Positions 12,381 to 39,548 of a DNA stretch of 44,077 bases are shown here, piece after piece. Origin of the DNA: Shigella phage EP23. Made by a program: the position numbers and the translations under genes. The stretch's first letter is position 1, and each line of letters begins with the position of its first letter. A model generated the notes under the pieces. That model was not told where the DNA came from. It did no database searches and was given only the letters and a program-made list of their open reading frames with translations. The stretch lies in sequence record JN984867; one strand, 5' to 3'.

Positions 12381-12446
12381 AAGGTTTGTTTTAAATTCGC
12401 TGATACAATGACCGACGGCAACTGCATAAAAAAGGGGGACTGCATA

Positions 12447-21950: not shown

Positions 21951-22031
21951 GTTATCATCTCCTGTATTGGGTTGAGTTTTAGTATTACACCGCTCAACCA
22001 AGAATGCAACCAATTTTATGAGGATTTAGCT

Positions 22032-23665: not shown

Positions 23666-23687
23666 GGGGCCACACGGCCCCTTTTTT
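23666..23687. terminator. bidirectional rho-independent terminator after fiber gene
   Basis: GGGGCC-acac-GGCCCC hairpin, T6 downstream and A-run upstream. Confidence 0.7.
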
Positions 23688-24261: not shown

Positions 24262-24303
24262 TGTGAATCCCCCATTGCTGCGGGCCGAAGCCCGCGATTA
24301 GTG

Positions 24304-24858: not shown

Positions 24859-24904
24859 AGTATTACCCTTTTAGCGAGGGGGCTGTATTGCCCCCGACAC
24901 GTTT

Positions 24905-24947
24905 ACTATAGTGCAACCAACCTATTGGTTGCAAGTGAATTTTGCAA
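24905..24947 (-). promoter_or_regulatory. leftward promoter TTGCAA-N18-TATAGT overlapping perfect inverted repeat TGCAACCAA-ccta-TTGGTTGCA (24912-24933)
   Basis: Hexamers and palindrome read directly on minus strand. Confidence 0.55.
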
Positions 24948-25392: not shown

Positions 25393-25613
25393 TTCAATTC
25401 CTCAATCAAATTTGCACGAACAGTACGGGCGGAAAACGTGTCACACACAAGATGACAGCGGGCAGTCATTACAAGCCAGCCAGTAAGGTCCATGCCCAGG
25501 AGGTGTTCTGGCCGTGACACGCGACGCACTTTGTTCTCCCTCGGGTTGATTTGGTAGCGTTTAACAATTTCGTCCACGACGCGCATACTGCGATCAACGA
25601 TTAAGATATTCAC
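25389..25613 (-). CDS. hypothetical small protein
   Basis: 74 aa ORF overlapping neighbours by a few nt; apparent GTG start. Confidence 0.3.
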   Translation of the reverse strand: MNILIVDRSMRVVDEIVKRYQINPRENKVRRVSRPEHLLGMDLTGWLVMTARCHLVCDTFSARTVRANLIEELK

Positions 25614-26079
25614 GTAGTTCTCCCTCGCTCATTATTTCAATTTGTGCGCTGCCGGTGGGCGGCGCTTCGTCGAAGATTATCAATTGCTGGCACTTGTTAT
25701 TGCTCGGCCCGACTTCACCAGTTACAGCGTGAATAAATCGGATACGCCAGTCCAGAAGAATTATCAGGTTTGCAGTCTTCCGGGCCAGCTTCGCCCACTT
25801 AGTCGACGTGTCCTGATTCAGTAGCATGACGGTCCGGCGTCCGTGCGCTGCGCACTTGACCCACGGCAGCGGATCGGAATACGGCGGGTTGCACCACTTC
25901 CACCCTTTCAACTCTGACCAGTCCACCTCAAGCGCGCTGTGCTCTGCCGTGAAGTAACGCGGTAGAAGGTGGTTGGCATCGCTCGCCGCCATATCGTAAC
26001 GGAATCGGTACTTCCGGCGCAGCGGTTTAAATAAAGCTGGCGGCGTGCGCCAGCTATCTTTTTGCTCACTCTTCTGCAT
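25594..26079 (-). CDS. DNA N6-adenine methyltransferase (phage Dam-like, orphan)
   Basis: WRTPPALFKPL...DMAASDANHLLPRYFT...WCNPPYSD: NPPY catalytic motif and Dam-type N-terminus; 161 aa. Confidence 0.7.
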   Translation of the reverse strand: MQKSEQKDSWRTPPALFKPLRRKYRFRYDMAASDANHLLPRYFTAEHSALEVDWSELKGWKWCNPPYSDPLPWVKCAAHGRRTVMLLNQDTSTKWAKLARKTANLIILLDWRIRFIHAVTGEVGPSNNKCQQLIIFDEAPPTGSAQIEIMSEGELREYLNR

Positions 26080-26524
26080 GATCTGGATCTATCGCGTACA
26101 GGGCAATTTTCTTATTACTGTTTAGAACGCGTTGCACGCGCTTTGATTCCTCGGTGCCGAGTGGTCGGCAGTCGGAGTAGTAAGACCCGTTCCCCCGCCA
26201 CGCAACCAGCACCAGGTCTTTCCGGTCAATCTTAGACTGGCGGCCCTTCGGACGCACGTACTCCTCGGCCCGTTTGCAATGCTCACGCAGACCATCGGCA
26301 GTGATGCGGTTTAGTGCAACGCTGGTGGTGTATCCGGTGCGCTGCATAATCCCCATCAATTTGAAAAGCAGTTCGAAGCGCTCCTCTAGCTCCTGGCGCA
26401 CTTTCTTCTCTCCTTCATATAGCGCCTGGTTGGTGTCCACCAACGCGTTAGCCCGTTCGGCCTGTTCGCGGGCTTCGAGGCATTGCGCGGCCCAGTAATC
26501 TTTTTCTTCTTGTAAAATTCTCAT
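26066..26524 (-). CDS. hypothetical protein
   Basis: ATG 26524 (MRILQEEK) after GGAGA RBS; track ORF extends upstream to 26599. Confidence 0.45.
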   Translation of the reverse strand: MRILQEEKDYWAAQCLEAREQAERANALVDTNQALYEGEKKVRQELEERFELLFKLMGIMQRTGYTTSVALNRITADGLREHCKRAEEYVRPKGRQSKIDRKDLVLVAWRGNGSYYSDCRPLGTEESKRVQRVLNSNKKIALYAIDPDHAEE

Positions 26525-26565
26525 CGTGTTGTCTCCAGGTATTAAAAAGGGCGTCCAACCGGACA

Positions 26566-26610
26566 CCCTCAATATAATGCAACCAATATGCTTATGCAAC
26601 CAATTTACGC
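26566..26610 (-). promoter_or_regulatory. leftward promoter region with two TTGGTTGCA motifs (TTGCAT-N17-TATATT)
   Basis: Read on minus strand: ttggttgcataagcatattggttgcattatatt. Confidence 0.5.
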
Positions 26611-26922
26611 ATAAAAATTTGGGTCGCGCGCAACGTCTACCAAGTAAAGGTTACTAATGCGGTTGCCGTAGTGGCCAGGTGTGCGCTGACGGCACACTAC
26701 GGCATAGCCTGGAGGTATTGTATTGCCAGTCTCGATAATCCACGCCACGCGTGCGCCAGACAGCGTCTTGCCGTTGCACTCGATACGAGTACCGCCATCA
26801 GTAGTATTGAGGTTGCCAATCTTGCAGCCGGTGGATTTCAGACGGATGACTCCGGTTTTGCTGTCGTAGGTGAATAGCTGGTTAGTCATTGCGACCGAAA
26901 AATCGATTGGTTCGAATGTCAT
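26605..26922 (-). CDS. HNH-endonuclease-like protein with apparently substituted catalytic residues
   Basis: LFTYDSKTGVIRLK...GKTLSGARVAW...GNRISNLYLV follows the phage HNH_3-type pattern, but the expected His/Asp positions read A and C-R. Confidence 0.45.
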   Translation of the reverse strand: MTFEPIDFSVAMTNQLFTYDSKTGVIRLKSTGCKIGNLNTTDGGTRIECNGKTLSGARVAWIIETGNTIPPGYAVVCRQRTPGHYGNRISNLYLVDVARDPNFYA

Positions 26923-26923
26923 T

Positions 26924-28351
26924 TTAAATTTTCCTCGTTTTCTTAGCTTTCATGTATTCCATCAAGTCGTCCTGGATATCTCGCCTACTGTCGCGACGCT
27001 CGGCGACCAATTCGTCCAGTGTCCCGCGAGCCTGGATAATGTAGACGAATACTGGTCGAGGGTGTCCGGCTTGCATCTGGCGAACCGGCCCGATACGTTC
27101 AACGATCTGCGAAAAGTGCTCAAAGTTCCAGGTATCGGAGAAGATTGCCAGGTGATGTCCGCCGTCCTGCAAGTTAAGGCCGTGGCCTGCCGATGCCGGG
27201 TGTGCAAACATGATGGGGATCTCGCCCCTGTTCCACGCTTCCATATCCTTATTGCCCTGCTTACCCTTACCCAACGCGACGCCGTGCGGAAATTTCTTCT
27301 TAAGACGTGCCAGATCATGCTTGTACTGATACGCAACGAGCAACGGCGCGCCGTTCAACTCCTCCACGATACTTTCCAGCGCGTCCAGCTTCGCGTCGTG
27401 AATCTTCACCCACTCGTCGGTCCGTTCGCCGTCTTCGTCCACCTTATACACAGCGCCGGATGCAAGCTGAAGGCACTTAATTGTCTTCGCCGCGGCGTTC
27501 GCCGCTTCCACTGTTCCGCTTTCCAGTTCGGCAAATAGCTCGCTTTCAAACTGGTCATAAATCTTGCGGGCTTTCTTCGGCAGGTCCACAACAACCGGCG
27601 TATAGATTGGCTTGTCACACCCGAAGTATTCAGCCGCATCAACGGTTAGCGACACGTCGGACAGTCGTTGTTGTATTTCTTTCTCGGAGTTCTTAAGCGG
27701 GGCGTGCTGCATCGTGAAGCTGCCAGGCTTAACAGGCTTGCTAATAAACCAGCGGTCCGTGAACGCCTTATAGCTACTGCCGAGACGTTCGCCGCCGTCG
27801 ACAAACCACGTCTGACCCCATAGGTCTTTCAGCCCGTTCGGTGCGGGTGTGCCAGTCAGGTTAATCCAGCGCTTGACGTGCTTATGTGCGATCGCTGCCA
27901 GCGCACGGGCGCGCTTACTTCCCTGCTTGCTTCTATAGCCTTTCAGCTTAGTGGATTCATCGGCAACCACGACCGTAAAGGGCCACTCGTCGCCGCAATA
28001 CTCAACAAGCCACTCAACTACATCATAGTTAATACAAACCACGTTAGCGTCGCTCTCAAGCGCAGCGATGCGGTCCTTCTCTGGCCCAGTGCCGTCTACT
28101 ACCAGCAAGGCTGGGAAGCGCCATTTCTCCTGTTCCGGGGGCCATGTACCGGACGCAACGCGCAGCGGGGCCAGCACCAGTACGCGGTCATCCTGGTTGG
28201 ACAGGATGCCAGTCTGGAACATTTTATTCAGCGCCCACATGGTCGCGCCGGTTTTACCCGACCCCATTGTCGCCCATATATTGCATCGCTTATGCTTGAG
28301 GATGAACGCGGTTATCAACTTCTGATATTCGCGACGTCGGAAACGTGCCAT
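26924..28351 (-). CDS. SNF2/DEAD-like superfamily-2 helicase
   Basis: Walker A MGSGKTGAT, DExx-like VVADESTK; start taken at ATG 28351 (MARFRRR), track ORF runs to 28441. Confidence 0.7.
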   Translation of the reverse strand: MARFRRREYQKLITAFILKHKRCNIWATMGSGKTGATMWALNKMFQTGILSNQDDRVLVLAPLRVASGTWPPEQEKWRFPALLVVDGTGPEKDRIAALESDANVVCINYDVVEWLVEYCGDEWPFTVVVADESTKLKGYRSKQGSKRARALAAIAHKHVKRWINLTGTPAPNGLKDLWGQTWFVDGGERLGSSYKAFTDRWFISKPVKPGSFTMQHAPLKNSEKEIQQRLSDVSLTVDAAEYFGCDKPIYTPVVVDLPKKARKIYDQFESELFAELESGTVEAANAAAKTIKCLQLASGAVYKVDEDGERTDEWVKIHDAKLDALESIVEELNGAPLLVAYQYKHDLARLKKKFPHGVALGKGKQGNKDMEAWNRGEIPIMFAHPASAGHGLNLQDGGHHLAIFSDTWNFEHFSQIVERIGPVRQMQAGHPRPVFVYIIQARGTLDELVAERRDSRRDIQDDLMEYMKAKKTRKI

Positions 28352-28355
28352 TTCT

Positions 28356-28589
28356 TTATTCCGCCTTTTTCCAGACTTCAGTTTCACTATCCCAGTTCCT
28401 CTTTGTGGCGTCGTAGTTGGTGGCGTGTCCGACGTGGACACCGGTAGCCCGGAAGCTCTTAAATTTTTGCCAGCACACCGTCAACGGCAGTGGGTAATTT
28501 AGGCCCGCGATAAACCACACGCGATCGCCTGGTTTACATTCGCCCAGCTTGGTGAGTCGGTAATGTTCTTTCATCGTCATGTCTCCCAA
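28356..28589 (-). CDS. hypothetical protein
   Basis: 77 aa ORF. Confidence 0.35.
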   Translation of the reverse strand: MGDMTMKEHYRLTKLGECKPGDRVWFIAGLNYPLPLTVCWQKFKSFRATGVHVGHATNYDATKRNWDSETEVWKKAE

Positions 28590-28617
28590 AAATGGCGGGA
28601 CAAGCCCGCCGTATTAA

Positions 28618-28791
28618 TTATTTTTGTTCTGCACGGTAGCGGCGCTGCCGTTCGCGCTCTTTCTTATTGCGGCACGATTTGCACTCTGCCCGATACCCGT
28701 CTGGACTGCGCGCAGTCTTACCGGTGTATTTGTGGAACTGGGATAGCGGCTTTACACAGCCGCAATTACTACAACGTTTTTCTTCAATCAT
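28618..28791 (-). CDS. small zinc-ribbon protein (CxxC...CxxC)
   Basis: MIEEKRCSNCGCVKPLSQF...YRAECKSCRNKKERERQRR; start at internal ATG 28791. Confidence 0.4.
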   Translation of the reverse strand: MIEEKRCSNCGCVKPLSQFHKYTGKTARSPDGYRAECKSCRNKKERERQRRYRAEQK

Positions 28792-28831
28792 CTCTAAAAT
28801 CCTCGATATGGCTAACCGGCACACTATACCG

Positions 28832-29110
28832 CTATGCGACCAATTCAGCAACCAATAAATCGCAGTCGGATATGTTGTCGATAACGCGAACGTCAGCACC
28901 GCGGCGGGCCATTCGCTCATGTTCACGTACCTGGTGCGGCTTCGGTTTTCCTCCGGGGCGCTTCACTTCGACGAACACTATTTTGCCGTTGATGATAATA
29001 ATCAGGTCGGGCGCACCTGCGCGCCCCTCCCATGCCAGTTTTCGGCAGAATCCGCCAACATCTTTCACCCGTCTCATCAGGTGGCTTTGAATCTTGCCTT
29101 CTGGTGTCAT
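28832..29110 (-). CDS. VRR-NUC domain nuclease (PD-(D/E)XK)
   Basis: GAPDLIIIINGKIVFVEVKRPGGK core; start ATG 29110 overlapping polymerase stop. Confidence 0.55.
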   Translation of the reverse strand: MTPEGKIQSHLMRRVKDVGGFCRKLAWEGRAGAPDLIIIINGKIVFVEVKRPGGKPKPHQVREHERMARRGADVRVIDNISDCDLLVAELVA

Positions 29111-32100
29111 TACTTGCGGTAGCGATACATGCAATCGCCCTCTGCGGCAAGTGGGAAGCCTTTCGCCCAAACCGGCAGGTCGCACATCAGCGCGCACAAC
29201 TCCTCGGTTGTGTAGTCGTCGGTATCCGGCACTTCGGTTATCAGCTCATCGTGTACGGAAAGTACGATCTCATACCCCGCAGCTTCAACGCCAGGCATGG
29301 ACCATGCGAGAATATCGCGGCACAACGCCTGTACGATGTTTTCCGTCAGTTTGCCGCCGTAGGTATACTGGAATCCCCACTGGCGCGTCGTCTGATTCTC
29401 GCCCTGATATTTAATGCGTGTGCTGGTGCGCTTCTTGCCGGTGTCTTCGTCGATCTCGGTCGTGACAGACAGCGCGATGCCAGGGTAGCTCATGATGCGC
29501 CCTGACGGCAACTCAATTTTAAGCCACCACCCCGCCGCGTTCGGGTCGTCGCGCTCCTCGTCGAAGGTCGGGTCATGCTTCGCCTTCGTTCGAACAATTT
29601 TGAGCGCTTTCCTGCCATCCGGGCGAACGTTCGCGCCAGCCCAGTACGCTTTGCCCGGATTGCGGATCGCGCAGAGCACCGCGTCCTCCAGTTCGGCCCA
29701 AAAGGCTACCGTCATCGGGTGAGACTCACGCCACATACGTTTGATCGCGTCACACGTCAGCCACACGTTTTTCGGCAGTATGTAAGTTGGGCGCTCGTCT
29801 TTCTTGCCAGGCTTCGGCGGGCGCTTCTCCTCGTTAATGCGAGCGTACTCATAACCCCGCTTCGCCGCCGCCCAAATGTGATCCGGGAATGTGCCCTTCA
29901 TGACGTCAGCCATAGTGTAAAGGTCGAGGCCCAGGTTTTTAGCGAACTGCAAGAACGCCGCGACGCCGCCACCATAGCCCAGGCCAAGCTCGCAGTTATG
30001 CGCCACCAGAAAACCAGACTTAGACGCAATAAGGAACCGGTTTCCGTCTTCCACATCAATCAGGTCGTAAACCGGCTCGCAATAGGTTAACTTCCCGTTC
30101 CAGTTCAGCAATGCGGGTAAGGGCTTCATCGTACTTTCTCTGAAGCTCGGGCACGCTGCGCCGGTTACGGCAGTTTTCCGAACGGCTGACAAACCGAAGG
30201 TTTCCAGGCTCATAGTCGCCGTCTGTATCGATCCTGTCCATTTCGAAGTCTGGCTTATCCCAGCCGTCCAGCGTTTGAACGTAGAGAAGAAACGACCTTT
30301 TATCTCTCTTCCATTCGTCACATACGGCAATCCCACGACCGCCGTAGTTTTTATACCCTTTGGCGCGGGGGTTTGTCGTTCGTGATATTGCCGCTGACAG
30401 CCGGTTGAGTAGCCGCGTTCTGTGCGCATCGTCTGGCATTGCGTCATCGTAGCAAAAATACTGTTTACGATACCGCTTTGTCGCTTCAATTGCGCAGAGG
30501 TTGCATTGGGATGTTTTACCCCTTCGGACGTTGTCATACCCGACGCGTCCTGGCATCGCTCCGCAATCACATTGGGCCAGCAGTTGTCTGTGACCCTGTC
30601 GTTTTGGTAATTCGCGCAGGATAACCAGGCGTCCATACCTCTCGCCAGGGCGCGGACCATCGTGCACCTGTCTGAAACGAGTTGCCTTGCCTCCTTCCAT
30701 GAATGCGTCAAGATTTTGTGGTCTTCTGTCATCAAGACCCCGTCCACGTCTATCACTGGTTTCCACCCCATAAGGTGCGCGCCTTTTGTACTCACCCATT
30801 TTTCGCCGTTCCATACTTTATCCGTTGATGTTACGGCCATAATATCCTTGAACCCGCCATTGGTCAATACTTGGGTATGGCGGTGCAAGCAAGCCTTACC
30901 GATCTGGCGTAAGTCCTTGCGGTTGGCTTTAATGTAATCCGGGTCAAGGCCGAACATCTTACCGGCAGTCTCGCAATAGATATCGCGACCGGCCTTAAAG
31001 ACCATTAACGCTGTTTTCTCGCCAGCGATCCAGGCAAGTCCACGCCCTTCCACATTGGAGTAGTCCGCTACGACAAACTTCTTGCCCTTCGCCGGAATAA
31101 TGCACCCGCGAACGGTCGAGGCCGTTAGCTTCGATATGTCATACGCCCAGTGTGCGGTCCCGCGTAACAGGGAGTTGATGCCGTTGGTGAGCATGTGCGA
31201 CCGGACCCAAAACGAGACGTCGCTTTCACCCTCGCGGCGTTTAATCTTCCCTTCGTGGTCGTCGCTGTACTCGCCACGCGCCAGGTTTTGAGGCTGGAAG
31301 CCTTTGCCCGCCCAGCGCAGCGTGCGCTTTGCGCCGCCATACTGAAGACACCCACGGCGGCGACCATCTGCGGATAAGCCGTTAACTAGCGGATTGTACT
31401 TAGTCGATGCCGTTGATGACGCCCCGAGGCGCATTTCGATAAGCGCTTTGCCTTCGTCGGGGAAGTCCGGGTCTTCAAGCAGGTCGTTAAGCGTGGATTT
31501 CTGCGCGTTGTGGATCGTGAACGCCGGGGCGATATCACGCAGGATTGGCAGGAAGTCATTGCCTGTCAGCTTACCGCCAAATCGCTCCCAGGCTTCTTCC
31601 TTCAATTCTTCCTTATGCGCCTGCACCGCTTTGATCGCGGCGTTCGCCAGGTCAACGTCGACGTAGAAGCCGCGGTCGTTAATCAACTGGTCGATGAGCA
31701 GGATTTCATCTTCCTTAGGCGAGTTTCCCCAGTCCGGTATGCGCCAGTAGACTTCACGCATTGCGATAATATCCAGCGCGGCATAGCGCAGAAATTTGGC
31801 CCATTCTTCCGGGTGAGTCTCGCGAGTGTAGCGGCGGATTTTGTAGGTCTTAGGGGTAGGCTTACAGAATCGGTTAATCAGCGCCTTGCCTGCCTTATCC
31901 TTCGCGTGCTCTGCGTCAACGCCCAGAACCTGGCACTGCATATCGAGGCTACCGGGCAGCGCGTGGCGAAAGGCCATAATCATAGTGTCTTCGATCTGGC
32001 TTACCGGCAGGTCAATACCCCACTTCTCGCGGATAACCAGGCGGTCAAACAGGAGGCCGTTAGCCATCACTATTTTAGCCTTCTTGCGGGATACCCGGCG

Positions 32101-32298
32101 GAGCGCCTTGCGCAGTTCACGCGGCATTGTGGGGGATTCAGTGGCATCCCATGTCTGCACGCGGCCCTCGTCTATGGCGTAGGTGCAAATCATAATCTCT
32201 GTGGTTGGGTGCTCCGCGTAGGCGTACGCCCCAACTTTCTTCAGGTCCACCCCGCTAAATGTCTCGGTGTCGAGAAACAGGCGTTCGAAGTCTTTCAT
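29110..32298 (-). CDS. family A DNA polymerase with 3'-5' exonuclease domain, interrupted by an intein in motif B
   Basis: Exo motif FLDTETFSG, motif A ADYSNVEGR, motif C LSVHDEL; motif B split as RQIGKA / intein / CELGLGYGG. Confidence 0.9.
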   Translation of the reverse strand: MKDFERLFLDTETFSGVDLKKVGAYAYAEHPTTEIMICTYAIDEGRVQTWDATESPTMPRELRKALRRVSRKKAKIVMANGLLFDRLVIREKWGIDLPVSQIEDTMIMAFRHALPGSLDMQCQVLGVDAEHAKDKAGKALINRFCKPTPKTYKIRRYTRETHPEEWAKFLRYAALDIIAMREVYWRIPDWGNSPKEDEILLIDQLINDRGFYVDVDLANAAIKAVQAHKEELKEEAWERFGGKLTGNDFLPILRDIAPAFTIHNAQKSTLNDLLEDPDFPDEGKALIEMRLGASSTASTKYNPLVNGLSADGRRRGCLQYGGAKRTLRWAGKGFQPQNLARGEYSDDHEGKIKRREGESDVSFWVRSHMLTNGINSLLRGTAHWAYDISKLTASTVRGCIIPAKGKKFVVADYSNVEGRGLAWIAGEKTALMVFKAGRDIYCETAGKMFGLDPDYIKANRKDLRQIGKACLHRHTQVLTNGGFKDIMAVTSTDKVWNGEKWVSTKGAHLMGWKPVIDVDGVLMTEDHKILTHSWKEARQLVSDRCTMVRALARGMDAWLSCANYQNDRVTDNCWPNVIAERCQDASGMTTSEGVKHPNATSAQLKRQSGIVNSIFATMTQCQTMRTERGYSTGCQRQYHERQTPAPKGIKTTAVVGLPYVTNGREIKGRFFSTFKRWTAGISQTSKWTGSIQTATMSLETFGLSAVRKTAVTGAACPSFRESTMKPLPALLNWNGKLTYCEPVYDLIDVEDGNRFLIASKSGFLVAHNCELGLGYGGGVAAFLQFAKNLGLDLYTMADVMKGTFPDHIWAAAKRGYEYARINEEKRPPKPGKKDERPTYILPKNVWLTCDAIKRMWRESHPMTVAFWAELEDAVLCAIRNPGKAYWAGANVRPDGRKALKIVRTKAKHDPTFDEERDDPNAAGWWLKIELPSGRIMSYPGIALSVTTEIDEDTGKKRTSTRIKYQGENQTTRQWGFQYTYGGKLTENIVQALCRDILAWSMPGVEAAGYEIVLSVHDELITEVPDTDDYTTEELCALMCDLPVWAKGFPLAAEGDCMYRYRK
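29995..30891 (-). mobile_element. intein (299 aa) in DNA polymerase motif B
   Basis: Insert starts with Cys (codon 30889-30891), ends ...LVAHN followed by Cys (+1); Hint-like blocks CLHRHTQVLTNGG, TEDHKIL, VYDLIDVEDGNRFLIASKSGFLVAHN; excision restores R-x3-K-x3-LG-x2-YG. Confidence 0.8.
30056..30814 (-). CDS. HNH homing endonuclease encoded in an alternative frame inside the intein
   Basis: YGRLVIL...CDCG...RGKTSQCNLC and GYKNYGGRGIAVCDEW...DRIDTDGDYEPGNLRFVSRSENCRNR match phage HNH/His-Me finger proteins; frame differs from polymerase (30814 mod 3 = 1 vs 32298 mod 3 = 0); true start may be an internal Met (~30700). Confidence 0.7.
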   Translation of the reverse strand: MERRKMGEYKRRAPYGVETSDRRGRGLDDRRPQNLDAFMEGGKATRFRQVHDGPRPGERYGRLVILRELPKRQGHRQLLAQCDCGAMPGRVGYDNVRRGKTSQCNLCAIEATKRYRKQYFCYDDAMPDDAHRTRLLNRLSAAISRTTNPRAKGYKNYGGRGIAVCDEWKRDKRSFLLYVQTLDGWDKPDFEMDRIDTDGDYEPGNLRFVSRSENCRNRRSVPELQRKYDEALTRIAELEREVNLLRAGLRPD

Positions 32299-32465
32299 TG
32301 CTTTATCCTCACTACGGCGTCAGCGCTGCCGATCATGGAGAAGATGCCGTCGGACAGGGCGATCTCTTCGCCGTTGTTGCGAATCTCGGCAACTGTGAAA
32401 TATTCCCCCAGTAGCTTGGACCATACTTGCATTCCGACTTTTACTTCGCTGGCTTTAATACGCAT
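32295..32465 (-). CDS. small protein (56 aa) translationally coupled to DNA polymerase
   Basis: ATG 32465 after AGGA; stop TGA overlaps polymerase ATG (ATGA); translated by hand, not in ORF track (below size cut-off). Confidence 0.35.
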   Translation of the reverse strand: MRIKASEVKVGMQVWSKLLGEYFTVAEIRNNGEEIALSDGIFSMIGSADAVVRIKQ

Positions 32466-32523
32466 TTTTCATTGTCCTGTTAAAAAGCCCGCATTAAGCG
32501 GGCTTGAATAGTGGGCTTTGCCC

Positions 32524-33198
32524 TTAACGGCGGCGACGTTTACGTGGCGCTTCGTCTTCGTCGTCGTCTTCGTCATCGTCATCACGACGTTTTGACTTTT
32601 TGGACTTACGCGGGCTTTCATCTTCGTCATCGTCGCCCAGGTCTTCGTCGGAACATGAAGACCCGCCACCGCCGAAGGCTTCGCCGTCATCACGGAAGCG
32701 CATACCCAGCAGACCACAGCCTAAGCCTTTGCCGTTGGTATTGTTCCAGGCCCAAATATCTAAGGAAACGTTGCAATAGCAACCGGAATAGATTTCCTTC
32801 CCTTCGATTTCGTCGCCGTCGATGGTCAGACCCTGCTCCGTCTGCTTCTCGCCTTCGGAAGTCTGGATGATCGGCTGTTTGAACGATTTGGCGTTGATGT
32901 ACAACATGCCTTCGAATTCTTCGGTTACTTCGTCGCGCTCGTCACCGTCGCGAACTGCGCATTCCTTAGAATCCTGGGCGTAGTGGCGGTCCATCCACTT
33001 ATCAGCATTCTTCTCGGATTTCAGCTTGTCGGTTAGCACTGCGCGCGCTGCCGCTTCCACTTTGTCCACCTGCGGATCTTCTTTATCAAGAAGAATCACT
33101 GCACGGTATGCCGGTTTTTGTCCATCCTGTTTAGGGGTATCACGTTCCCAAATTTTAAGGAAACATACGCGCACATTTTTCAGGTTGACTTTAGCCAT
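32524..33198 (-). CDS. ssDNA-binding-like protein (DUF2815-like, putative) with poly-acidic/basic C-terminal tail
   Basis: ATG 33198 after GAGGA; C-terminus DEDLGDDDEDESPRKSKKSKRRDDDDEDDDEDEAPRKRRRR; adjacent to Cas4-like nuclease and polymerase. Confidence 0.45.
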   Translation of the reverse strand: MAKVNLKNVRVCFLKIWERDTPKQDGQKPAYRAVILLDKEDPQVDKVEAAARAVLTDKLKSEKNADKWMDRHYAQDSKECAVRDGDERDEVTEEFEGMLYINAKSFKQPIIQTSEGEKQTEQGLTIDGDEIEGKEIYSGCYCNVSLDIWAWNNTNGKGLGCGLLGMRFRDDGEAFGGGGSSCSDEDLGDDDEDESPRKSKKSKRRDDDDEDDDEDEAPRKRRRR

Positions 33199-33254
33199 TT
33201 TCCAATTCCTCATTTTCACATGTATCGGGGTTATTGGAAGCCACCCCGTTCGGC

Positions 33255-33285
33255 TTGGTTGCTAATTTACTTGGTTGCGCCTGAG
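33255..33285 (-). promoter_or_regulatory. pair of TTGGTTGC motifs 18 bp apart upstream of SSB-like gene
   Basis: cttggttgctaatttacttggttgcg read directly. Confidence 0.35.
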
Positions 33286-33288
33286 CGG

Positions 33289-33531
33289 TCAAGCATTTTC
33301 ATTAAAAAGATTTCGGGTAACGTAGTTGGTCGCGTTCTCGATCCAGCTTAACGGCGGGCGGTTGATGTTCTTCTCCACCCAATCGACGGCAGCTTCGCTA
33401 TAGCCGTCATCCAGCCAGCGGGTCGGATGTCTAATCATCCATGCCACCATTAACACGCCTTGCACACAATGCAGGATAAAGCCCAGCGCGCCGATAACAA
33501 ACATCAATAAGATTGCGAATACTTTATTCAT
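33289..33531 (-). CDS. small membrane protein
   Basis: 80 aa, hydrophobic segment AILLMFVIGALGFILHCVQGVLMVAWMI. Confidence 0.4.
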   Translation of the reverse strand: MNKVFAILLMFVIGALGFILHCVQGVLMVAWMIRHPTRWLDDGYSEAAVDWVEKNINRPPLSWIENATNYVTRNLFNENA

Positions 33532-34954
33532 TGCTTAAGTCCTCGTCAGTAGCTACAGACCACGCAGGGCGCGGGTCGTCGATGGGTGCTAATACCGGTT
33601 TAGCTGGTGCGCGCGTGATTTTATCACACAGCTTCGCCCATACTTTCGGCTTCTCGTCCTTCAATACCTTCTCGGCATCAGTAGGGCTGAGTAATGTTTC
33701 TTTGTACATCACATCGCGCTTGATCCGGGCCTTCGTGAAGATTTCAATCACTTCGCTTTCGTCCGCCCACTTGCGAATCCCTTCCTTACCTGCAACCATC
33801 TTGAGGCCCAGCGATTCGCCGTCGCCCGCCATCACAGCCTTGAATACCGCGGACTCGATAGCCTTGATGTGCTGGCGCATTGCGTCCAGGCCTTCATAAG
33901 CCTTGCGCAGTTCCGCGGCGGTCATAGCGCCGGGGGCCGCTTCTTTCTTGCCACGCTTCGCACGTCGTGCCGCTTTGCGGGCTTCGCGGGCCATATTGCG
34001 GTCGTGATTGGCGCATTCTTCCTCTGTCGCAATACTCACGTCGTCGCCCAGGTCTTCGTCTGTTGCCGTTGGTGGGGTCATCGTGCCGATTGCAGCCTTA
34101 GCGCGGGCGCTACACTGATCCGCAAATCTGCACCACTGACACGCATCAACGCTCGGTCGGAAGTCGGCGCGGGTGAGTCCCTTTTTTCCGCGGGAGTACG
34201 CTTCCAGGGCGGCGATAGCACGCTTGGACGCAAACTTAGCGAATATCTCCAGGGCTTCTACCGAAATATCCCACTCCGACGCCCCGCCGCAATACGGCTG
34301 GAAGATAACAAGGCGCACGGTTGTAATGTCGTACATAGTTTTCAGCTTGCGCAGCAAGCCCAGCGCATACAACATAAGCTGTTTGTTTTCTTTCGCCTCG
34401 ACCTTATGCCGCCCCGTCTTCAGGTCGCCAACAATCAGCATGTACGTGCCGTCGGTCTTCTTCATGACCATGACCATATCGGCAGTACCGAACGTCTTAA
34501 CCCGGTTGCCGTCGATCTCGAAGCCTGAGTGAAGGACGCGGGTCAGATCGGCGCGCATCTCAAGCTGAACAAACTCCGCCACTTCGAGGAGCGGTCGCCA
34601 GTGGTCGATGTACGCGTCGCACTGTTTCACCATGTCGTCGTTGACCAGTACGCCGCCTTTCGGTGCTTTCGGGTGGGCCTTTACCGGCCCCTTACCTTCG
34701 TTCTCTACGTAGCACCCTTTGTACGTCTTAGCGGTTATCAGCTTCTCCCCGGCAATGATGCGGTTTAGCACCACTTCAGATACGGTGTGCATACTCGTAC
34801 CGTTAATCGCCGCTTGCCCGGATTCGTTCGGGATATCTTTTTCCACCACCAGGGCGGCGGGACACCCCATCCATTTTTTAGCACCGGATGGGCCAAGTAA
34901 TGAGTGTTCCGTATTACTACCGGATTGCGTTTTACGTTTTGGTTTAATCGCCAT
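33524..34954 (-). CDS. PD-(D/E)XK exonuclease, Cas4/RecB-like with C-terminal Cys cluster (DUF2800-like)
   Basis: IVGDLKTGRHKVEAKENKQLMLYALGL (D-x-K, QxxxY) and DACQWCRFADQCS cysteine motif; 476 aa. Confidence 0.6.
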   Translation of the reverse strand: MAIKPKRKTQSGSNTEHSLLGPSGAKKWMGCPAALVVEKDIPNESGQAAINGTSMHTVSEVVLNRIIAGEKLITAKTYKGCYVENEGKGPVKAHPKAPKGGVLVNDDMVKQCDAYIDHWRPLLEVAEFVQLEMRADLTRVLHSGFEIDGNRVKTFGTADMVMVMKKTDGTYMLIVGDLKTGRHKVEAKENKQLMLYALGLLRKLKTMYDITTVRLVIFQPYCGGASEWDISVEALEIFAKFASKRAIAALEAYSRGKKGLTRADFRPSVDACQWCRFADQCSARAKAAIGTMTPPTATDEDLGDDVSIATEEECANHDRNMAREARKAARRAKRGKKEAAPGAMTAAELRKAYEGLDAMRQHIKAIESAVFKAVMAGDGESLGLKMVAGKEGIRKWADESEVIEIFTKARIKRDVMYKETLLSPTDAEKVLKDEKPKVWAKLCDKITRAPAKPVLAPIDDPRPAWSVATDEDLSNE

Positions 34955-35133
34955 TATTCCACCCGTGTAAACTGGACAATTACATATTTCACATTCGCCA
35001 AGCCCGCTTTTTCGACACGGCTGCGCACTTCATGCTGCGCATCGGTCCAGCACATCGAGGCGTCCTTGTTAACAACAAGAAAAGAGAAATGGTCGTTTAA
35101 TTCGTGGCAAGTTGCCAGCACGAAAAATTTCAT
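34954..35133 (-). CDS. small protein (59 aa), translationally coupled
   Basis: ATG 35133, stop TAA overlapping nuclease ATG (TAATG); hand-translated. Confidence 0.3.
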   Translation of the reverse strand: MKFFVLATCHELNDHFSFLVVNKDASMCWTDAQHEVRSRVEKAGLANVKYVIVQFTRVE

Positions 35134-35384
35134 TATTTTGTCTCCCAGCGGTCAATTGTTTTTGCTTCGGATGCAACGGCGAAGCGAACATATTCCAGAT
35201 TGGAGTCAGCCCAAATATAAAAATCGGGGTTAGTAAAGGTGGTGCGCTTAATTTGCGCGGGGGTGTTGCGGCGTTTATCTATTACGGCAACGCGGGATTG
35301 AAAGCTGCCGATGCGTTCGAATAGCCAATAGTACGGGCGCTGGTCGCGGGAATCCACCGCCTCGATTAGCGTGAATCGTGCCAT
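35133..35384 (-). CDS. hypothetical protein
   Basis: 83 aa ORF with GAGGA RBS. Confidence 0.4.
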   Translation of the reverse strand: MARFTLIEAVDSRDQRPYYWLFERIGSFQSRVAVIDKRRNTPAQIKRTTFTNPDFYIWADSNLEYVRFAVASEAKTIDRWETK

Positions 35385-35396
35385 TGTCTCGTCCTC

Positions 35397-35424
35397 TAAA
35401 AAGAGGCCCGCTAATATGCGGGCC
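35397..35424 (-). terminator. intra-operon terminator / attenuator
   Basis: On minus strand GGCCCGC-atatta-GCGGGCC hairpin followed by CUUUUU. Confidence 0.45.
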
Positions 35425-35426
35425 GG

Positions 35427-35552
35427 ATAATATTAATCTTCACCGCCGAGTTGTTTATAAACCTCGTCCGGGTCGTCGCCTCTTTCTTCGCAGAAGGCGG
35501 TGAATGCCGCCCAATTTTCTGCTATGAAATCGAGCATGATTCTCATTTCATA
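35427..35552 (-). CDS. small acidic protein (41 aa)
   Basis: ATG 35552; hand-translated MDYEMRIMLDFIAENWAAFTAFCEERGDDPDEVYKQLGGED. Confidence 0.25.
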
Positions 35553-35562
35553 GTCCATGATA

Positions 35563-36081
35563 TTAATCTTCCAGTTCGAAATAAGTTTCGACGATTTCTT
35601 TTAGCTCTTTGTGGAAGTCTTCGACGTCGTCATCTTCCAGCTTAGCGATTGATTTGATCTCGAACGATTCCAGAAGGTCGTCGAATTCGTCGTTCGCATC
35701 GTCGTCATCGCCACCGGCGATAATCGCGGCATACTGTTTGATTTCGTCGCGCATCTCCGCCAGCGGATCGGCATCTTTCTTACCTTTGCCTTTCGCCGGT
35801 GCTTTCTTAGACTTAGCCGGTTTTTCGTCTTCGGCATCGGCATCGTCGTCGTCATCTTCTACGACTTCTTTTTTGGCCTTACCTTTCGCCGGTGCTTTTT
35901 TGGTTTTCGCCGGGGCTTCGTCTTCAGCGTCGTCATCTTCTACGACTTCTTTTTTGGCCTTAGACGGCTTCTTGTCTTCCTGTTTACCAACGGCAGCGCC
36001 AACGGTTTCATAATGCTTAGCGATGATTTCCAGTGCTACTACGCCGCGAGTGATCAGGTTTACGATTTGCTCAAACATGGT
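35563..36081 (-). CDS. highly charged repeat protein (alternating poly-acidic and KKAPAKGK blocks), first gene of leftward early operon
   Basis: Start ATG 36081 (MFEQIVNL); internal ~70-bp tandem DNA repeat near 35780-35960; track ORF extends to 36306 through the leader. Confidence 0.5.
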   Translation of the reverse strand, partial: TMFEQIVNLITRGVVALEIIAKHYETVGAAVGKQEDKKPSKAKKEVVEDDDAEDEAPAKTKKAPAKGKAKKEVVEDDDDDADAEDEKPAKSKKAPAKGKGKKDADPLAEMRDEIKQYAAIIAGGDDDDANDEFDDLLESFEIKSIAKLEDDDVEDFHKELKEIVETYFELED

Positions 36082-36274
36082 ATATCTCCGATTGGTTAAG
36101 TTTAGGTGTCGACCATTAACTTCGTCGGTGGCCTTAACATAGTGCCAGGTTACGCGTTCTCCCGTTCGGGTAGTGGACCTGGTTATATAATCACGGTTGG
36201 GAATCCTGACACTTCGATCCGGCCCCTGCGTTGCCCCTCTCCAGTTTGCGTCCTGCATCCTGTCGACGAGGTGA

Positions 36275-36303
36275 ATATTAGATTGGTTGCAGAAGGGAGT
36301 CAA
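36275..36303 (-). promoter_or_regulatory. leftward promoter TTGACT-N17-TAATAT with TGCAACCAA in the spacer
   Basis: Read on minus strand: TTGACTcccttctgcaaccaatcTAATAT; ~190-nt leader before ATG 36081. Confidence 0.55.
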
Positions 36304-36313
36304 CAACTAATTT

Positions 36314-36480: not shown

Positions 36481-36810
36481 ATGAATATCAACGACGCAAT
36501 CGAAATGCTAACGAAGACTGTCTGCAGTGAGACTAGCCGGTCCTGGGCGTATACCGATGCCGTGGGGGCGGTGCTATTTGAAATCGAACGTCTGCGACTT
36601 ACCGAAAAAGAATTGCGCGCGAAGCTGGAATTACTCAACGGTACGGCAGCCAGCAAGCTGCAAAAGCACAATGAAGAAATGGAAGAATACAAAAAACAGG
36701 TTATCCGTTTGCGCGCCGAGGGAAAATCCTGGGCGATGATCGCTGAGTTGACAGGAATTAATCAGAGCACCGTGCGCTCCTGGGTACGCAATAACAAAAC
36801 TTCGAAGTAA
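36481..36810 (+). CDS. HTH DNA-binding protein (putative transcriptional regulator)
   Basis: C-terminal KSWAMIAELTGINQSTVRSWVRN helix-turn-helix; GGAGA RBS; first rightward gene. Confidence 0.5.
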   Translation: MNINDAIEMLTKTVCSETSRSWAYTDAVGAVLFEIERLRLTEKELRAKLELLNGTAASKLQKHNEEMEEYKKQVIRLRAEGKSWAMIAELTGINQSTVRSWVRNNKTSK

Positions 36811-36820
36811 GGCAACGGCA

Positions 36821-39085
36821 ATGAGCTTAATTAAATTCGCTGTAACACGACCCGCTAAAAAAGGCGAAAAAGCCAGGGCGGAAAACTTCCAGATGACCAC
36901 CGATGAATTTTTCGAATTTATCAATGACGCGAAAGAAATATCATCGGTGCATATCAACAAGACCGAGGATAAAGCGGAGTATGCGCGCCGCAAGCGTAAG
37001 GCCGATGGCATCGTAGCGTATACCAGTGACGGCTTACGCCGCAAGACCAGCGCGGTGGACCGCTCGATCCTGTTCTTTGATATTGACCGCACCGACACTC
37101 GCACCTTACGCCGCTGCCGTAAGGCGTTCATTGACGCGGGTCTGGAACACGTATTCCACACAACCACCGGCGACCGCCACCCGCTTAAAGGCGGCACGCG
37201 TTGCGCTCGCTTCCTGGTACTCACTGATAAGCCGGTCCCGGCTGAAGACCTGGGCCGTGTCCAGTATGCGCTATTACATCAACTTGGTCTGTCGGATGTG
37301 GACTTCGACGATTGCACGAAAGACACAAACCGCCTGATGTACCTGCCGCACCAGCAATCGGTTATTAAGTGCCACTACGGCAAACGTGCCCGCGTCCGTC
37401 GTCTGCTTCGCCTGGCGGATACGCTTGGCGTGGAGAAGGAAGAAGTACGCCGCGAGCTTACCCAGGGCGACGACGCAGTGGCGGACGGGATTCTGGACTG
37501 GTGCTTCCAGGCAGGATTTGAGGAGTTATCTTCCGGTCGCGGTTATGAAGTGCCATGCCCGAACGAACATCTGCACAGCGGCGAAGGGTCGACGGCTATC
37601 ATGGTCAAGGATGGCGAGATCCGTTTCAAGTGTATGCACACAGGCAACGAGTGTTGCTCTGAGCTAAATAGACACCAGCACCTGGCGCTACGTCTTATCG
37701 GGATACCGGACCACCTGAACGTCGAGCCGCACAACATGTCGCGTAAGCAAATCGCCGCCATCCTGCCAGGTCTGGACGACGAGGAAGTCGAATCCTTATA
37801 TGATCATATTGTTGATGCAGTTGGCGACGGCGAAGAATACGGCGTGTGCACCGATGCGGATCTGGATAACGAGCCGGTCGCACTATTCAGTAAGCACGAC
37901 CCGATCATCGAAGGCCTGGTCAACTTCAAATCGACCTGGTACATGGCTGGCGAGTCGAACATCGGTAAATCGTTCTACGTGCTGGGCCAAATGGGCGCGG
38001 TTGCCGCGGGGATTCCGTTCGGCGGTGCGAAGGTCGTCCAGTCTCATTGCTTCTATTTCGACGCGGAAGGTGGCGAAGCCTCCAACCAGCGTAAGGAAGC
38101 ATTGCAGATCAAATATGAGCACGACCTGGACAAGCTGCACATTATTGACCTGCAATCACGCGGCTGGGATATCACCAGCAAATCAGGCTTGCGTGAAGTT
38201 ATCAGCTTCATCAACCGCACCGCTAACGGCGAGCCGGTTGGCCTGGTGGCGTTCGACTCACTCAACCAGACTGTTGCGCTGCGGTCCGCCGATGCAAAAC
38301 CGTTCGACGAGAACAACGCCAGCGATATGGGCGAAGTGGTCAAAGCGCTGAAGGCCATTGCGGAAAATACAGGCGGCAGTGCGGGCGTCATCCACCACCC
38401 GGCGAAAGGTGCAAACGGCCGCAGATCTCCCCGTGGGTCCGGCGCGCTGCATGGTGCTGTCGATTCTGCGTTCTTCCTGGAGCAACCGGACGACAACCAG
38501 CCAGGTCAATTGAACCTGTATCACGAAAAGGCACGTAACGGCATCAAGCAAGCGCCGCGCGGCTTCGTCCTGCTCAAGTGCAAGGTTAAGGTGGATCTCC
38601 GCAAGTCCGAAGCGTTCGAAGCCCACCAGTCCACCAGCACCGGGCCAGACTTCGGCGATGTGGTTGCCGGTTGGGACGTCAAACCAATTGCGTCCACCCC
38701 GCGCGACGAGACTCTATACCTCGTACCGGTAGCCCTGGCACCGTTCGCGATAGAACAGGCGAAGGCGGCGGGCAAAGCCGCAGTTAAGGAAGAGAACACC
38801 GCCGGTCCGCGCAACGAAAAAGAGAAAGTGCTTTATGCGGCCCTGGAAAAACTGATGGCAGATAACCCTGACCATACTGGATTCAGTAAATCGGCAATTG
38901 TACGCCAGGCGGGACTCGCTAAGGGTGGCACTTCGACGAAGGCAATCGACGATATGGTCGAGCGCGGCGTGATTGGTTTCTATACAGACCCGCACACCGG
39001 GGCCATATATGGGTCGTCGAATTTAGTCATCAAATCGGAGATCCCCATAACGCTTTCGGCGACCGATGACGACCTGAAAGACTAA
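36821..39085 (+). CDS. DNA primase-helicase (prim-pol-like N-terminus plus RecA/DnaB-like ATPase)
   Basis: SILFFDIDRTD acidic motif, Cys/His cluster CPNEHLHSGEG...CMHTGNECC, Walker A GESNIGKSFYVLGQ; 754 aa. Confidence 0.75.
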   Translation: MSLIKFAVTRPAKKGEKARAENFQMTTDEFFEFINDAKEISSVHINKTEDKAEYARRKRKADGIVAYTSDGLRRKTSAVDRSILFFDIDRTDTRTLRRCRKAFIDAGLEHVFHTTTGDRHPLKGGTRCARFLVLTDKPVPAEDLGRVQYALLHQLGLSDVDFDDCTKDTNRLMYLPHQQSVIKCHYGKRARVRRLLRLADTLGVEKEEVRRELTQGDDAVADGILDWCFQAGFEELSSGRGYEVPCPNEHLHSGEGSTAIMVKDGEIRFKCMHTGNECCSELNRHQHLALRLIGIPDHLNVEPHNMSRKQIAAILPGLDDEEVESLYDHIVDAVGDGEEYGVCTDADLDNEPVALFSKHDPIIEGLVNFKSTWYMAGESNIGKSFYVLGQMGAVAAGIPFGGAKVVQSHCFYFDAEGGEASNQRKEALQIKYEHDLDKLHIIDLQSRGWDITSKSGLREVISFINRTANGEPVGLVAFDSLNQTVALRSADAKPFDENNASDMGEVVKALKAIAENTGGSAGVIHHPAKGANGRRSPRGSGALHGAVDSAFFLEQPDDNQPGQLNLYHEKARNGIKQAPRGFVLLKCKVKVDLRKSEAFEAHQSTSTGPDFGDVVAGWDVKPIASTPRDETLYLVPVALAPFAIEQAKAAGKAAVKEENTAGPRNEKEKVLYAALEKLMADNPDHTGFSKSAIVRQAGLAKGGTSTKAIDDMVERGVIGFYTDPHTGAIYGSSNLVIKSEIPITLSATDDDLKD

Positions 39086-39169
39086 ATCCTATTTTGAGTG
39101 TTTTTAGCTGGTCGCATTGGTTGCCGTGCAGTATAAATATAGTGAATAGTTATGCAATAAAACTGCATA

Positions 39170-39335
39170 AAGTAAGCGGGACAAAAAGCGGGACAAACTT
39201 GGGGCGGGACAAAGCGGGACAGCACCCCCGTCCCGCCCCGGATGACGCGGCCTGGAGAGGAGCGGGACAGGCGGGACAACTCCCAGTCTTTCAGACTAGA
39301 CGGGGGTCAGCGGCCCCCCTCGTCTGAGACTGCAT
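39170..39335. repeat. iteron-rich non-coding region, copy 2 (GCGGGACA repeats, CTGCATAAA motifs, 70-bp block 39263-39332 identical to 12308-12377); candidate origin
   Basis: Direct read; lies just downstream of primase-helicase gene. Confidence 0.8.
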
Positions 39336-39484
39336 AAAATCCGGGATTGCAAAATACACGGCAGCACATTGGAAATCGCGGTCGTCGATGAACTGGGCAA
39401 CCAATGCGAGTTGCAGAATGTGGTGTGAAAAATGCAGTTTGCAGTCACAGCTGATAGCGATCAACTTTTTCATGCGCATGATTA

Positions 39485-39535
39485 ATATTGGTTGCATTCA
39501 TGCCAGCACCCTGCTAGATTGGTTGCACACCAACA
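39485..39535 (+). promoter_or_regulatory. rightward promoter region with two TTGGTTGCA motifs
   Basis: attaatattggttgcattc...agattggttgcacacc upstream of gene at 39549. Confidence 0.4.
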
Positions 39536-39548
39536 TGAGGGCTGAACA

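Follow-up and report, generated by a model that had tools for sequence, protein, structure and literature searches.

In the alpha protein of P4, a primase and a helicase are joined to a winged helix at the C terminus, through which the protein binds the repeats of the origin (PMC2777425, PMC4234260), and both alpha and the protein of pRN1 recognise an origin next to or near their own gene (PMC4234260, PMC2777425). In the Sulfolobus plasmid pRN1, the origin is a stem-loop directly downstream of a gene for an archaeo-eukaryotic primase (AEP) fused to a helicase and a winged helix, and the structure of this stem-loop is conserved while its sequence is not (PMC4234260). Similar stem-loops have been noted after such genes in phages (PMC4234260), and an origin of this type has been proposed also for Bordetella phage BIP-1. 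In RSF1010, RepC binds the iterons, RepA unwinds the DNA and the AEP primase RepB' recognises the exposed ssiA and ssiB stem-loops (PMC4234260, PMC8567376). The present study concerns an iteron-plus-hairpin module that occurs twice in the 44,077-nucleotide sequence of Shigella phage EP23 (sequence record JN984867; this whole stretch is called the window), once in the non-coding gap that follows the gene of a primase-helicase (region B) and once in a second gap 26,955 bp away (region A). At two loci of P4, ori and crr, octamer iterons stand in both orientations, direct and inverted, and P4 is not known to have a conserved hairpin beside them. SPP1 has two distant clusters of initiator-binding repeats, oriL and oriR, one at the replication genes and one in the late region; its initiator G38P, its helicase loader and its DnaB-type helicase are separate proteins, and oriL lies inside the initiator gene.

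On balance, we incline to the reading that replication starts in region B, as the origin or its core, and that region A acts as a further origin or a cis-acting enhancer, because the iteron cluster, the hairpin kept as a structure and the adjacent AEP–helicase–winged-helix gene resemble studied origins (P4 ori/crr, RSF1010 oriV and the pRN1 stem-loop); the base composition of the AT-rich flank is compatible with this. As expected of an origin, short repeats are concentrated in non-coding DNA far above chance, and the module adjoins a replication gene, keeping the same position down to 44% protein identity.

Anatomy of the two module copies

Exact copies of the iteron octamer GCGGGACA number 17 in the window, 2.12 +/- 1.5 being expected, and none of 100 shuffles reached 17. 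Thirteen of the 17 lie in the two non-coding regions, six at 39176-39278 in region B and seven at 12090-12323 in region A, and 18 of the 27 copies of the relaxed core GGGACA in the window are found there as well. Regions A and B have in common a 78-nt block (12305-12382 versus 39260-39337) that is 97% identical (76/78) and includes two iterons, the hairpin and the CTG[A/C]ATAA motif, together with a second block of 35 nt (12244-12278 versus 39200-39234) at 94%. Within the whole window, exact CTGCATAAA occurs only at 12208, 12422, 39163 and 39330, and five of the six copies of TGCATAAA lie inside regions A and B. These counts confirm the duplication of iterons, motifs and hairpin block reported in the preliminary description, and the gap of about 460 bp that it placed after the primase-helicase gene measures 463 bp. 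The repeats do lie at 39170-39335, the extent given there, but the unit is larger than those 166 nt: the conserved module of region B runs from about 39142 to about 39342, starting about 57 bp past the primase-helicase stop codon, and region A has an extra inverted iteron module. The features of the two regions are as follows.

39086-39548, no strand: region B, the 463-bp non-coding gap from the primase-helicase stop codon to the next open reading frame (ORF) at 39549, holding the whole module
39116-39125: ATTGGTTGCC box, the leftmost element in region B
39120-39175, no strand: AT-rich stretch, candidate DNA-unwinding element, 68% AT against 46% in the genome, adjoining the iterons on their left
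39142-39171, + strand: GTGAATAGTTATGCA motif and palindrome TTATGCA-N7-TGCATAA, with CTGCATAAA at 39163-39171
39176, 39188, 39204 and 39214 (span 39176-39221), + strand: four direct GCGGGACA iterons
39230-39236, - strand: inverted iteron GTCCCGC, forming a palindrome with iteron 3 or 4, in a GC-rich block
39262 and 39271 (span 39262-39278), + strand: two close GCGGGACA iterons directly before the hairpin
39284-39332, no strand: imperfect hairpin CAGTC...GACTG of about 49 nt, with a GC-rich apex and a conserved bulge
39330-39342, + strand: CTGCATAAAATCC motif at the right module edge, an imperfect inverted copy of GAATAGTTATGCA
39487-39528, + strand: two ATTGGTTGCA boxes around TTGCAT-N17-TAGATT, about 150 bp right of the module and just before the next gene
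12051-12446, no strand: region A, a 396-bp gap with the second module copy
12055-12177, mixed orientation: extra iteron modules of region A only, 12145-12180 being the reverse complement of 39201-39236
12221, 12233, 12248 and 12258 (direct), 12273-12278 (degenerate, inverted), 12307 and 12316 (close pair); span 12221-12323, + strand: region A iterons matching those of region B
12329-12377, no strand: region A hairpin, identical in sequence to that of region B

Iteron spacing in region B is irregular (12, 16, 10, 48 and 9 bp). The AT-rich stretch is short and also carries conserved motifs that resemble protein sites, and to its right the segment 39200-39260 is only 23-30% AT. Region A, which has the same element order as region B plus the extra iterons, is bounded on the left by the tail assembly chaperone, whose frameshift extension (a DUF1799-like frame) ends at 12050, and on the right by the tape measure gene (probable ATG at 12447); for a cis-acting site this position is unusual. 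The boxes at 39487-39528 are likely a promoter/operator of the downstream genes outside the iteron module, as the sigma-70-like elements there, read by eye, suggest.

Conservation of the module and replacement of its octamer

The genome is that of a Dhillonvirus (an HK578/SO-1-like siphovirus of E. coli) and is complete or near-complete. Region B has matches in 157 phage records, is 76-100% conserved in them, and follows the primase-helicase stop codon as a module in every Dhillonvirus inspected among these records. When 32 distinct copies were aligned, the CGGGACA cores, the stems of the hairpin and the TG[C/A]ATAA motifs showed no variation, whereas differences were seen in the spacers and in the loop of the hairpin, which also has single-base indels. 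Several copies of region A have a degenerate inverted iteron, and between the inverted iteron and iteron 4 the relatives have 0 to 8 nt. Both elements had already been annotated in Sodalis phage SO-1 (NC_013600) as repeat_region 'region A' and 'region B', the latter at 89% identity to region B here; they are the same two elements at the same positions, which the depositors describe, in annotation only, as direct, inverted and palindromic repeats similar to each other. In the literature, no paper discussing or testing the SO-1 repeat regions was found, nothing relevant turned up on origin data for HK578 or SO-1, and no published origin mapping was found for Dhillonviruses. The repeats were thus on record, and an iteron origin beside a primase-helicase gene is of the kind that specialists would expect, which limits the surprise. 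What is new here is the persistence of the architecture beyond the genus with lineage-specific octamers, the agreement of the octamer between regions A and B, the compensatory changes in the hairpin and the domain make-up of the primase-helicase.

Three mechanically called ORFs overlap the module (39094-39327, +, 77 aa; 39291-39497, -, 68 aa; 12191-12382, +, 63 aa), and hypothetical proteins are annotated at this place in some GenBank records. That the region encodes a small protein or a stand-alone small RNA is nonetheless very improbable. The coding potential of the overlapping ORFs was rejected, as the + strand ORFs of regions A and B end in different frames and single-base loop indels separate close relatives, and fixed octamers amid variable spacers do not make a codon pattern; a small RNA is opposed by the missing promoter and terminator signals and the missing Rfam match described below.

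Homologues of the primase-helicase with 44-69% identity were located on metagenomic contigs and in GenBank, and in all of these loci the gap after the stop codon has the same layout with a lineage-dependent octamer. The lineages, with the identity of their protein to that of the window, are as follows.

L051, primase-helicase P0011, 68%: octamer GCGGGACA
L052, P0010, 68%: octamer G[CT]GTGGCA
L054, P0007, 69%: octamer G[CT]GTGGCA
L055, P0008, 69%: octamer GTGTGCCA
L056, P0013, 66%: octamer GGTGCCA
L053, P0015, 48%: octamer TTGCGAGT
Salmonella phage STP-1 (Guernseyvirinae), STP-1 protein, 44%: octamer GGGGGAGA

All five exact genomic copies of GGGGGAGA in STP-1 lie inside the gap after the primase-helicase gene, and the close iteron pair before the hairpin has the lineage-specific octamer in L054, L055, L208, L209 and L210. 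The GTGAATAGTTATGCA motif with the palindrome TTATGCA-N7-TGCATAA shows little or no change across six Dhillonviruses and recurs in L051, L052, L054, L208, L210 and STP-1. Homologues of the tail chaperone were used to reach region A in two further lineages. L055 and L209 come from the same sample (SRR25999232), their contigs together make 44.5 kb, and they were taken as one phage, which has GTGTGCC[AG] iterons in both region B (L055) and region A (L209); the P0011-like lineage (L208, L210) has GGGACA in region A as in region B, so that agreement between A and B on an octamer other than GGGACA rests on the one phage with both regions recovered. Since A and B switch octamer together, the iteron reader must, on this comparison, be a lineage-specific factor encoded by the phage, which excludes a host protein.

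In STP-1, only region B is present, the chaperone extension running directly into the tape measure gene, and in Kagunavirus and Jerseyvirus a reverse-oriented DicA-like repressor gene, not an iteron array, follows the primase-helicase. Region B is therefore, judged from the relatives, the older copy, tied to the replication gene, and region A was presumably added in the Dhillonvirus-like clade. Two smaller motifs were noted in the same comparison. One, GTGAATAGT, is common to Dhillonvirus regions A and B (12187-12195 and 39142-39150), STP-1 and Kagunavirus; in Kagunavirus XY2 (L019, 320-345 and 3920-3990) it lies within the spacer of a TTGACA-N17-TATAGT promoter beside the DicA-like repressor gene, and it may be an old operator kept at the edge of the origin module. 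The other, GATTTATAAGGAG, is conserved in non-Dhillonvirus lineages in the spacer between the palindrome and the proximal iterons (L054 6700-6745, L055 2880-2905, L056 5030-5050 and L208 3340-3370); it resembles a ribosome-binding site, yet no conserved ORF follows, and its equivalent in the window is GGAGAGGAG, in region B only.

The hairpin of region B has a minimum free energy of -27.6 kcal/mol. Its basal stem AGACG/CGTCT becomes GGACG/CGTCC in L208 and L210, and its apical stem GGGGG/CCCCC becomes GGGTG/CACCC in L054, two compensatory changes that are independent of each other; a bulge of one or two bases is retained in the 3' arm, and the loops vary freely. These pairs were read from per-sequence folds and a regular-expression parse, the MAFFT alignment having shifted the 3' arm by one column in L208 and L210. 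In L055, STP-1 and L053, the sequences at this position are unrelated yet likewise form imperfect hairpins of 50-60 nt with -25 to -30 kcal/mol. The hairpin is, on this comparative evidence, selected as a structure. Its two strands fold about equally, the difference of + minus - energy ranging from -2.6 to +4.2 kcal/mol with inconsistent sign. Because the folding energies of the strands are essentially equal, the stems appear to be Watson-Crick palindromes that do not rely on G-U pairs, a weak indication of a structure that acts at the level of DNA, such pairing being less typical of one selected in a transcript.

A hairpin of this kind could nevertheless serve in a transcript, whether for processing or stabilisation at an RNase III site, for attenuation or for antitermination of the put kind, with the iterons as operator or activator sites of a lineage-specific phage factor, and region B would then control the lysis/late block and region A the tape-measure/tail block. 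We consider such control of transcription or RNA possible, though unlikely. RNase III sites are long imperfect hairpins, as here, but stems of Watson-Crick pairs without strand asymmetry are unusual for a structure selected as RNA, and no Rfam match emerged even at a permissive threshold: Rfam 15 gave no hits at the gathering threshold in the window and, at E<=5 in region B, one chance-level miRNA match only (E 0.19, 19.5 bits against a threshold of 83 bits). Both copies are co-oriented with the long + strand unit, each just upstream of a gene block (holin, lysin and terminase from 39549 on; tape measure and tail from 12447 on). The scans, however, found no sigma-70-like promoter in region A or B and no intrinsic terminator in either, the hairpin being called on neither strand; GCATAAAATCC follows the stem, and no T-run is found there in any lineage on either strand. 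The palindrome TTATGCA-N7-TGCATAA at the left edge resembles a dimer-binding site, and diversifying specificity is also typical of regulator/operator pairs, yet the only recognisable regulator nearby, a helix–turn–helix (HTH) protein encoded at 36481-36810, has the same recognition helix in GGGACA and GTGGCA lineages, and the only copy in STP-1 is the one beside the replication gene.

Regions A and B of one genome, including those of this window, often carry common recent variants, which points to gene conversion between the two. Such conversion would also suit a selfish or neutral repeat with no role in the life cycle, such as a miniature inverted-repeat transposable element (MITE)-like element or a recombination hot spot, as would the two copies with their imperfect inverted ends (GAATAGTTATGCA ... 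TGCATAAAATCC) and the resemblance of region A to an insertion relative to STP-1. The chance of this explanation nevertheless seems slight, since both positions are fixed across lineages at 57-69% protein identity, the iteron cores are invariant amid drifting spacers, A and B switch iterons jointly and the hairpin shows compensatory changes. Moreover, the hairpin sequence was absent from 185,579 representative bacterial and archaeal genomes and was found in IMG/VR in Dhillonvirus contigs only. No replicon built on the module was found in the plasmid collection. A scan of IMG/VR for GTGTGGCA-N(0-4)-GTGTGGCA returned at least 120 loci, which were unrelated, and IMG/VR searches with the tail assembly chaperone and tape measure proteins reached only close Dhillonviruses.

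The primase-helicase, candidate iteron readers and gene setting

The gene to the left of region B encodes the protein best placed to act on the module.

36821-39085, + strand: primase-helicase, candidate initiator, 754 aa; domains from the N to the C terminus: AEP primase, Cys/His zinc motif, RepA-like helicase, winged helix

The domain order, which describes architecture only, is based on Pfam, conserved motifs, two AlphaFold models and fold searches. Pfam recognises AAA_25 only (RepA-type helicase domain, 6e-19, residues 357-531), and the best sequence match in the PDB, a weak one, is the RSF1010 RepA structure 1G8Y. The AEP primase domain has a RepB'-like fold, and in an alignment of 46 homologues D87, D89 and H120 are invariant and a Cys/His cluster extends from C246 to H285. 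Residues 640-754 were modelled at a pLDDT of 73 (core 80-90) with an H1-H2-H3-wing topology, and Foldseek matched this model to winged-helix DNA-binding domains (MarR, ArsR, histone H1 and LexA; best E 8.5e-3, probability up to 0.99). By its position and domain content, and not by co-variation, the primase-helicase is the best candidate for the iteron binder.

Three other candidates for the iteron binder were rejected. The HTH protein at 36481-36810 was set aside on account of its identical recognition helix in the two lineage groups, and it is more likely to bind the conserved ATTGGTTGC boxes, for which it appears the better candidate. For the 247-aa protein encoded at 35563-36306 (-), identity is 89% with its counterpart in a GTGGCA lineage and only 42% with that in a GGGACA lineage, an anti-correlation with iteron type, and the genes just downstream of region B are non-orthologous between two GGGACA lineages.

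Two further observations concern the primase-helicase itself. Around residues 680-710 (38858-38950), a profile of the winged helix finds similarity to BurrH (4CJ9), a protein of TALE-like repeats, with E 4e-27 and four repeat units covered. The common motif is GFSxxxIxKxAGxxGGxxxxAxxxL, and the loop preceding GG is hypervariable across lineages (LAK, YEK, MAA, IAT, VKP and MPK); the match may be either homology or convergence of helix–loop–helix units. In addition, dozens of 766-aa homologues (P0026-P0106; 44-45%, Cornellvirus-like) were found in assemblies that carry the label Salmonella enterica at NCBI, the contig being about 42-44 kb long in many cases, and whole phage genomes seem to be carried in many Salmonella isolates, whether as a carrier state, by pseudolysogeny or through contamination.

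A separate motif family, (A)TTGGTTGC(A), occurs 17 times in the window against 1.97 expected and is conserved in all related lineages.

(A)TTGGTTGC(A) copies: 6462-6483 (-), 22006 (-), 24913 (-)/24925 (+), 26579/26596 (-), 28848 (-), 33255/33271 (+), 36283 (+), 39117 (+), 39397 (-), 39488/39519 (+), 40073 (-) and 42491 (-)

The copies are often paired, 12-31 nt apart, at the heads of transcription units; some come right after a -10-like TAnAnT, and one forms the palindrome TTGGTTGCACACCAA. They are probably early promoters or operators of the phage, with the HTH protein of 36481-36810 as a candidate binder.

Across the 2.5 kb surrounding the region B module, identity is 99.8% with Escherichia phage P-GXEC-L2P5 and 85-94% with well over 100 further Dhillonvirus records. 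The GenBank record of this closest relative (PQ843332.1) is 88,607 bp long, about twice a Dhillonvirus genome, and matches region B at seven to eight places instead of two; it is probably a duplicated or concatenated assembly. In the window, the + strand carries the structural and tail genes between 56 and about 23660. Genes for replication and nucleotide metabolism, among them those of a SNF2 helicase, a family-A DNA polymerase, an Enc34-type single-stranded DNA-binding protein (32524-33219) and an exonuclease, follow as a block on the - strand (23686-36306), and a + strand block from 36481 holds the small HTH protein, the 754-aa primase-helicase and then small genes, holin and lysin. A scan of the window found no tRNA or tmRNA genes.

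Several peculiarities of these blocks were noted. The family-A DNA polymerase gene at 29110-32298 (-) encodes 1062 aa against about 753 aa in STP-1, Pfam DNA_pol_A covers residues 393-469 only, and residues 487-858, with a polymerase segment on either side, match an 'endonuclease' family of PHROGs, an arrangement suggestive of an intein or a homing-endonuclease insertion. Two - strand ORFs (254 and 188 aa) at 5080-6492 interrupt the + strand head-gene block and have a ATTGGTTGCA promoter-like pair at their head (6453-6486), and in L208, L209 and L210 - strand genes with ATTGGTTGCA boxes likewise stand between the chaperone extension and region A. The last + strand ORF of the tail-gene block (21972-23660, 562 aa) contains near-perfect (97%) direct repeats of 65 nt, 105 nt apart, at 22518-22687, probably a coiled-coil or collagen-like repeated segment.

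The gene layout also bears on packaging. The preliminary description had allowed that the copy at 12 kb might be a pac-like site, for which no support was obtained. In more general form, the small terminase would bind the iterons and the first headful cut would fall nearby, and terminase-binding sites made of short repeats are known from lambda cosB and SPP1 pac. Three records from Germany, Ecuador and Kazakhstan (WFI, BMA1 and Zar3M; MK373791, PQ178821 and OM262541) start at the equivalent of window position 39448 (CAGCAGATAGCGATC...), 115 bp right of the hairpin; this common start is, however, probably a convention and not a physical terminus, given that Korf et al. adjusted genome ends to related published phages. 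PhageTerm indicated headful packaging with permuted genomes for BF9 and Opt-212, which also speaks against a pac function of the module. With terS at 56-628, 4.8 kb away from the module, with two copies present and with synteny across genera to the replication gene and not to the terminase genes, we regard a pac site as highly improbable.

Weighing the origin reading against known systems

Considering these comparisons together, we propose the following series of events for an origin in region B. A phage-encoded protein would bind the iterons, the best positional candidate being the primase-helicase through its C-terminal winged helix. The helicase would then assemble and open the adjoining AT-rich DNA, and the palindrome, exposed as single-stranded DNA or as a cruciform, would fold into the hairpin. 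The hairpin could act as a loading or priming signal for the AEP primase domain, as ssiA and ssiB do for RepB' in RSF1010 and the stem-loop does for pRN1, and the family-A DNA polymerase of the phage would extend the primer. Diversification of the iterons may keep the initiator of each phage specific to its own DNA.

A number of results weigh against this reading. DnaA boxes (TTWTNCACA, at most one mismatch) number 61 in the window against 56.5 expected, without clustering in region A or B; the possibility that the TGCATAAA-like motifs are weak DnaA boxes was rejected, as the consensus is not enriched. The GC skew follows gene orientation only, with turning points at about 23.6 and 36 kb, a minimum at about 36 kb and no signal at 39.2 kb. 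The iterons are irregularly spaced octamers, unlike the 17-22-bp iterons of plasmids, and region B of EE09 is without the palindrome and the two proximal iterons, which makes that part dispensable in EE09. The orientation of both copies with transcription, ahead of gene blocks, fits a regulatory role as well. As to the protein, the Foldseek matches of the winged helix are weak at their best E value, and domain-wise co-variation of the primase-helicase with iteron type left no domain clustering cleanly. Between the window and P0011, both with GGGACA, the winged-helix region is only 56-58% identical, no closer than in pairs with different iterons, and residues fixed within the GGGACA and GTGGCA groups and differing between them show a mild excess at 690-750 (9/28).

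The copy after the primase-helicase gene had been put forward as the stronger origin candidate. This ranking stands in so far as all computed comparisons fit an origin and mark region B as the primary and ancestral copy; it is tempered by the finding that no domain of the primase-helicase cleanly tracks iteron type, and the role in transcription or RNA control discussed above is the main, if less likely, alternative. More speculatively, Dhillonviruses and their relatives might have a two-site origin system, with a primary site beside the primase-helicase gene and a second one in the tail operon, between the genes of the chaperone and the tape measure, both sites being read by means of an 8-bp 'address' that close lineages have replaced six times or more; we advance this broader proposal as a doubtful one. 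Were it true, each virulent phage would have a private replication specificity protecting it from co-infecting relatives, and the second site might couple fork passage, or looping of the P4 crr kind, to the expression of tail genes. The reader of the address would then not be an obvious repressor-like protein and could represent a new mode of DNA recognition in the primase-helicase, whose winged helix includes a stretch similar to a TALE-like repeat. The iteron variants, at least six in number, make up a natural series for studying how initiator–DNA specificity evolves in virulent phages and whether co-infecting relatives are isolated by it. For Dhillonviruses, common phages of E. coli that are used in the BASEL collection and in work on therapy and biocontrol, knowing the origin together with its initiator would also aid engineering (origin plasmids, replication-dependent reporters and rebooting).

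Among the described systems, P4 is matched in that a single polypeptide carries primase, helicase and C-terminal winged helix, at the level of architecture, and in that each genome has two separate clusters of one iteron, here regions A and B, which co-vary across lineages. The alpha protein, however, has a Toprim/DnaG-type primase and an SF3 (D5-like) helicase (PMC2777425), whereas the protein here is of the AEP and RepA/AAA_25 types, and the sequence of the winged helix here, the putative iteron binder, shows no clean co-variation with the type of iteron. With a primase and a helicase of other families, the P4 system is, by its domain make-up, an analogue and not a homologue.

The module matches the oriV of RSF1010/R1162 in having iterons that adjoin a hairpin without terminator function, a RepA-family helicase and a RepB'-like AEP primase. 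It differs in that primase and helicase are fused here, each site has one hairpin instead of two on opposite strands, the iterons are 8 bp instead of 20 bp long and each genome has two sites. Among the genes nearby, to which the search for RepC was confined, none was seen to encode a RepC-like protein, and the module falls outside the definition of IncQ, which comprises two opposed ssi sites and RepC. With pRN1, the locus has in common a stem-loop downstream of an AEP–helicase–winged-helix gene that is kept in structure and not in sequence; pRN1 has an SF3 helicase, a stem-loop of about 100 nt and no iterons (PMC4234260), in contrast to a stem-loop of about 50 nt, preceded by iterons, in a duplicated module here. 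By analogy, the module would thus be an iteron origin with a structured priming or loading signal, most like that of RSF1010 or pRN1, joined by a second site of the P4 or SPP1 kind.

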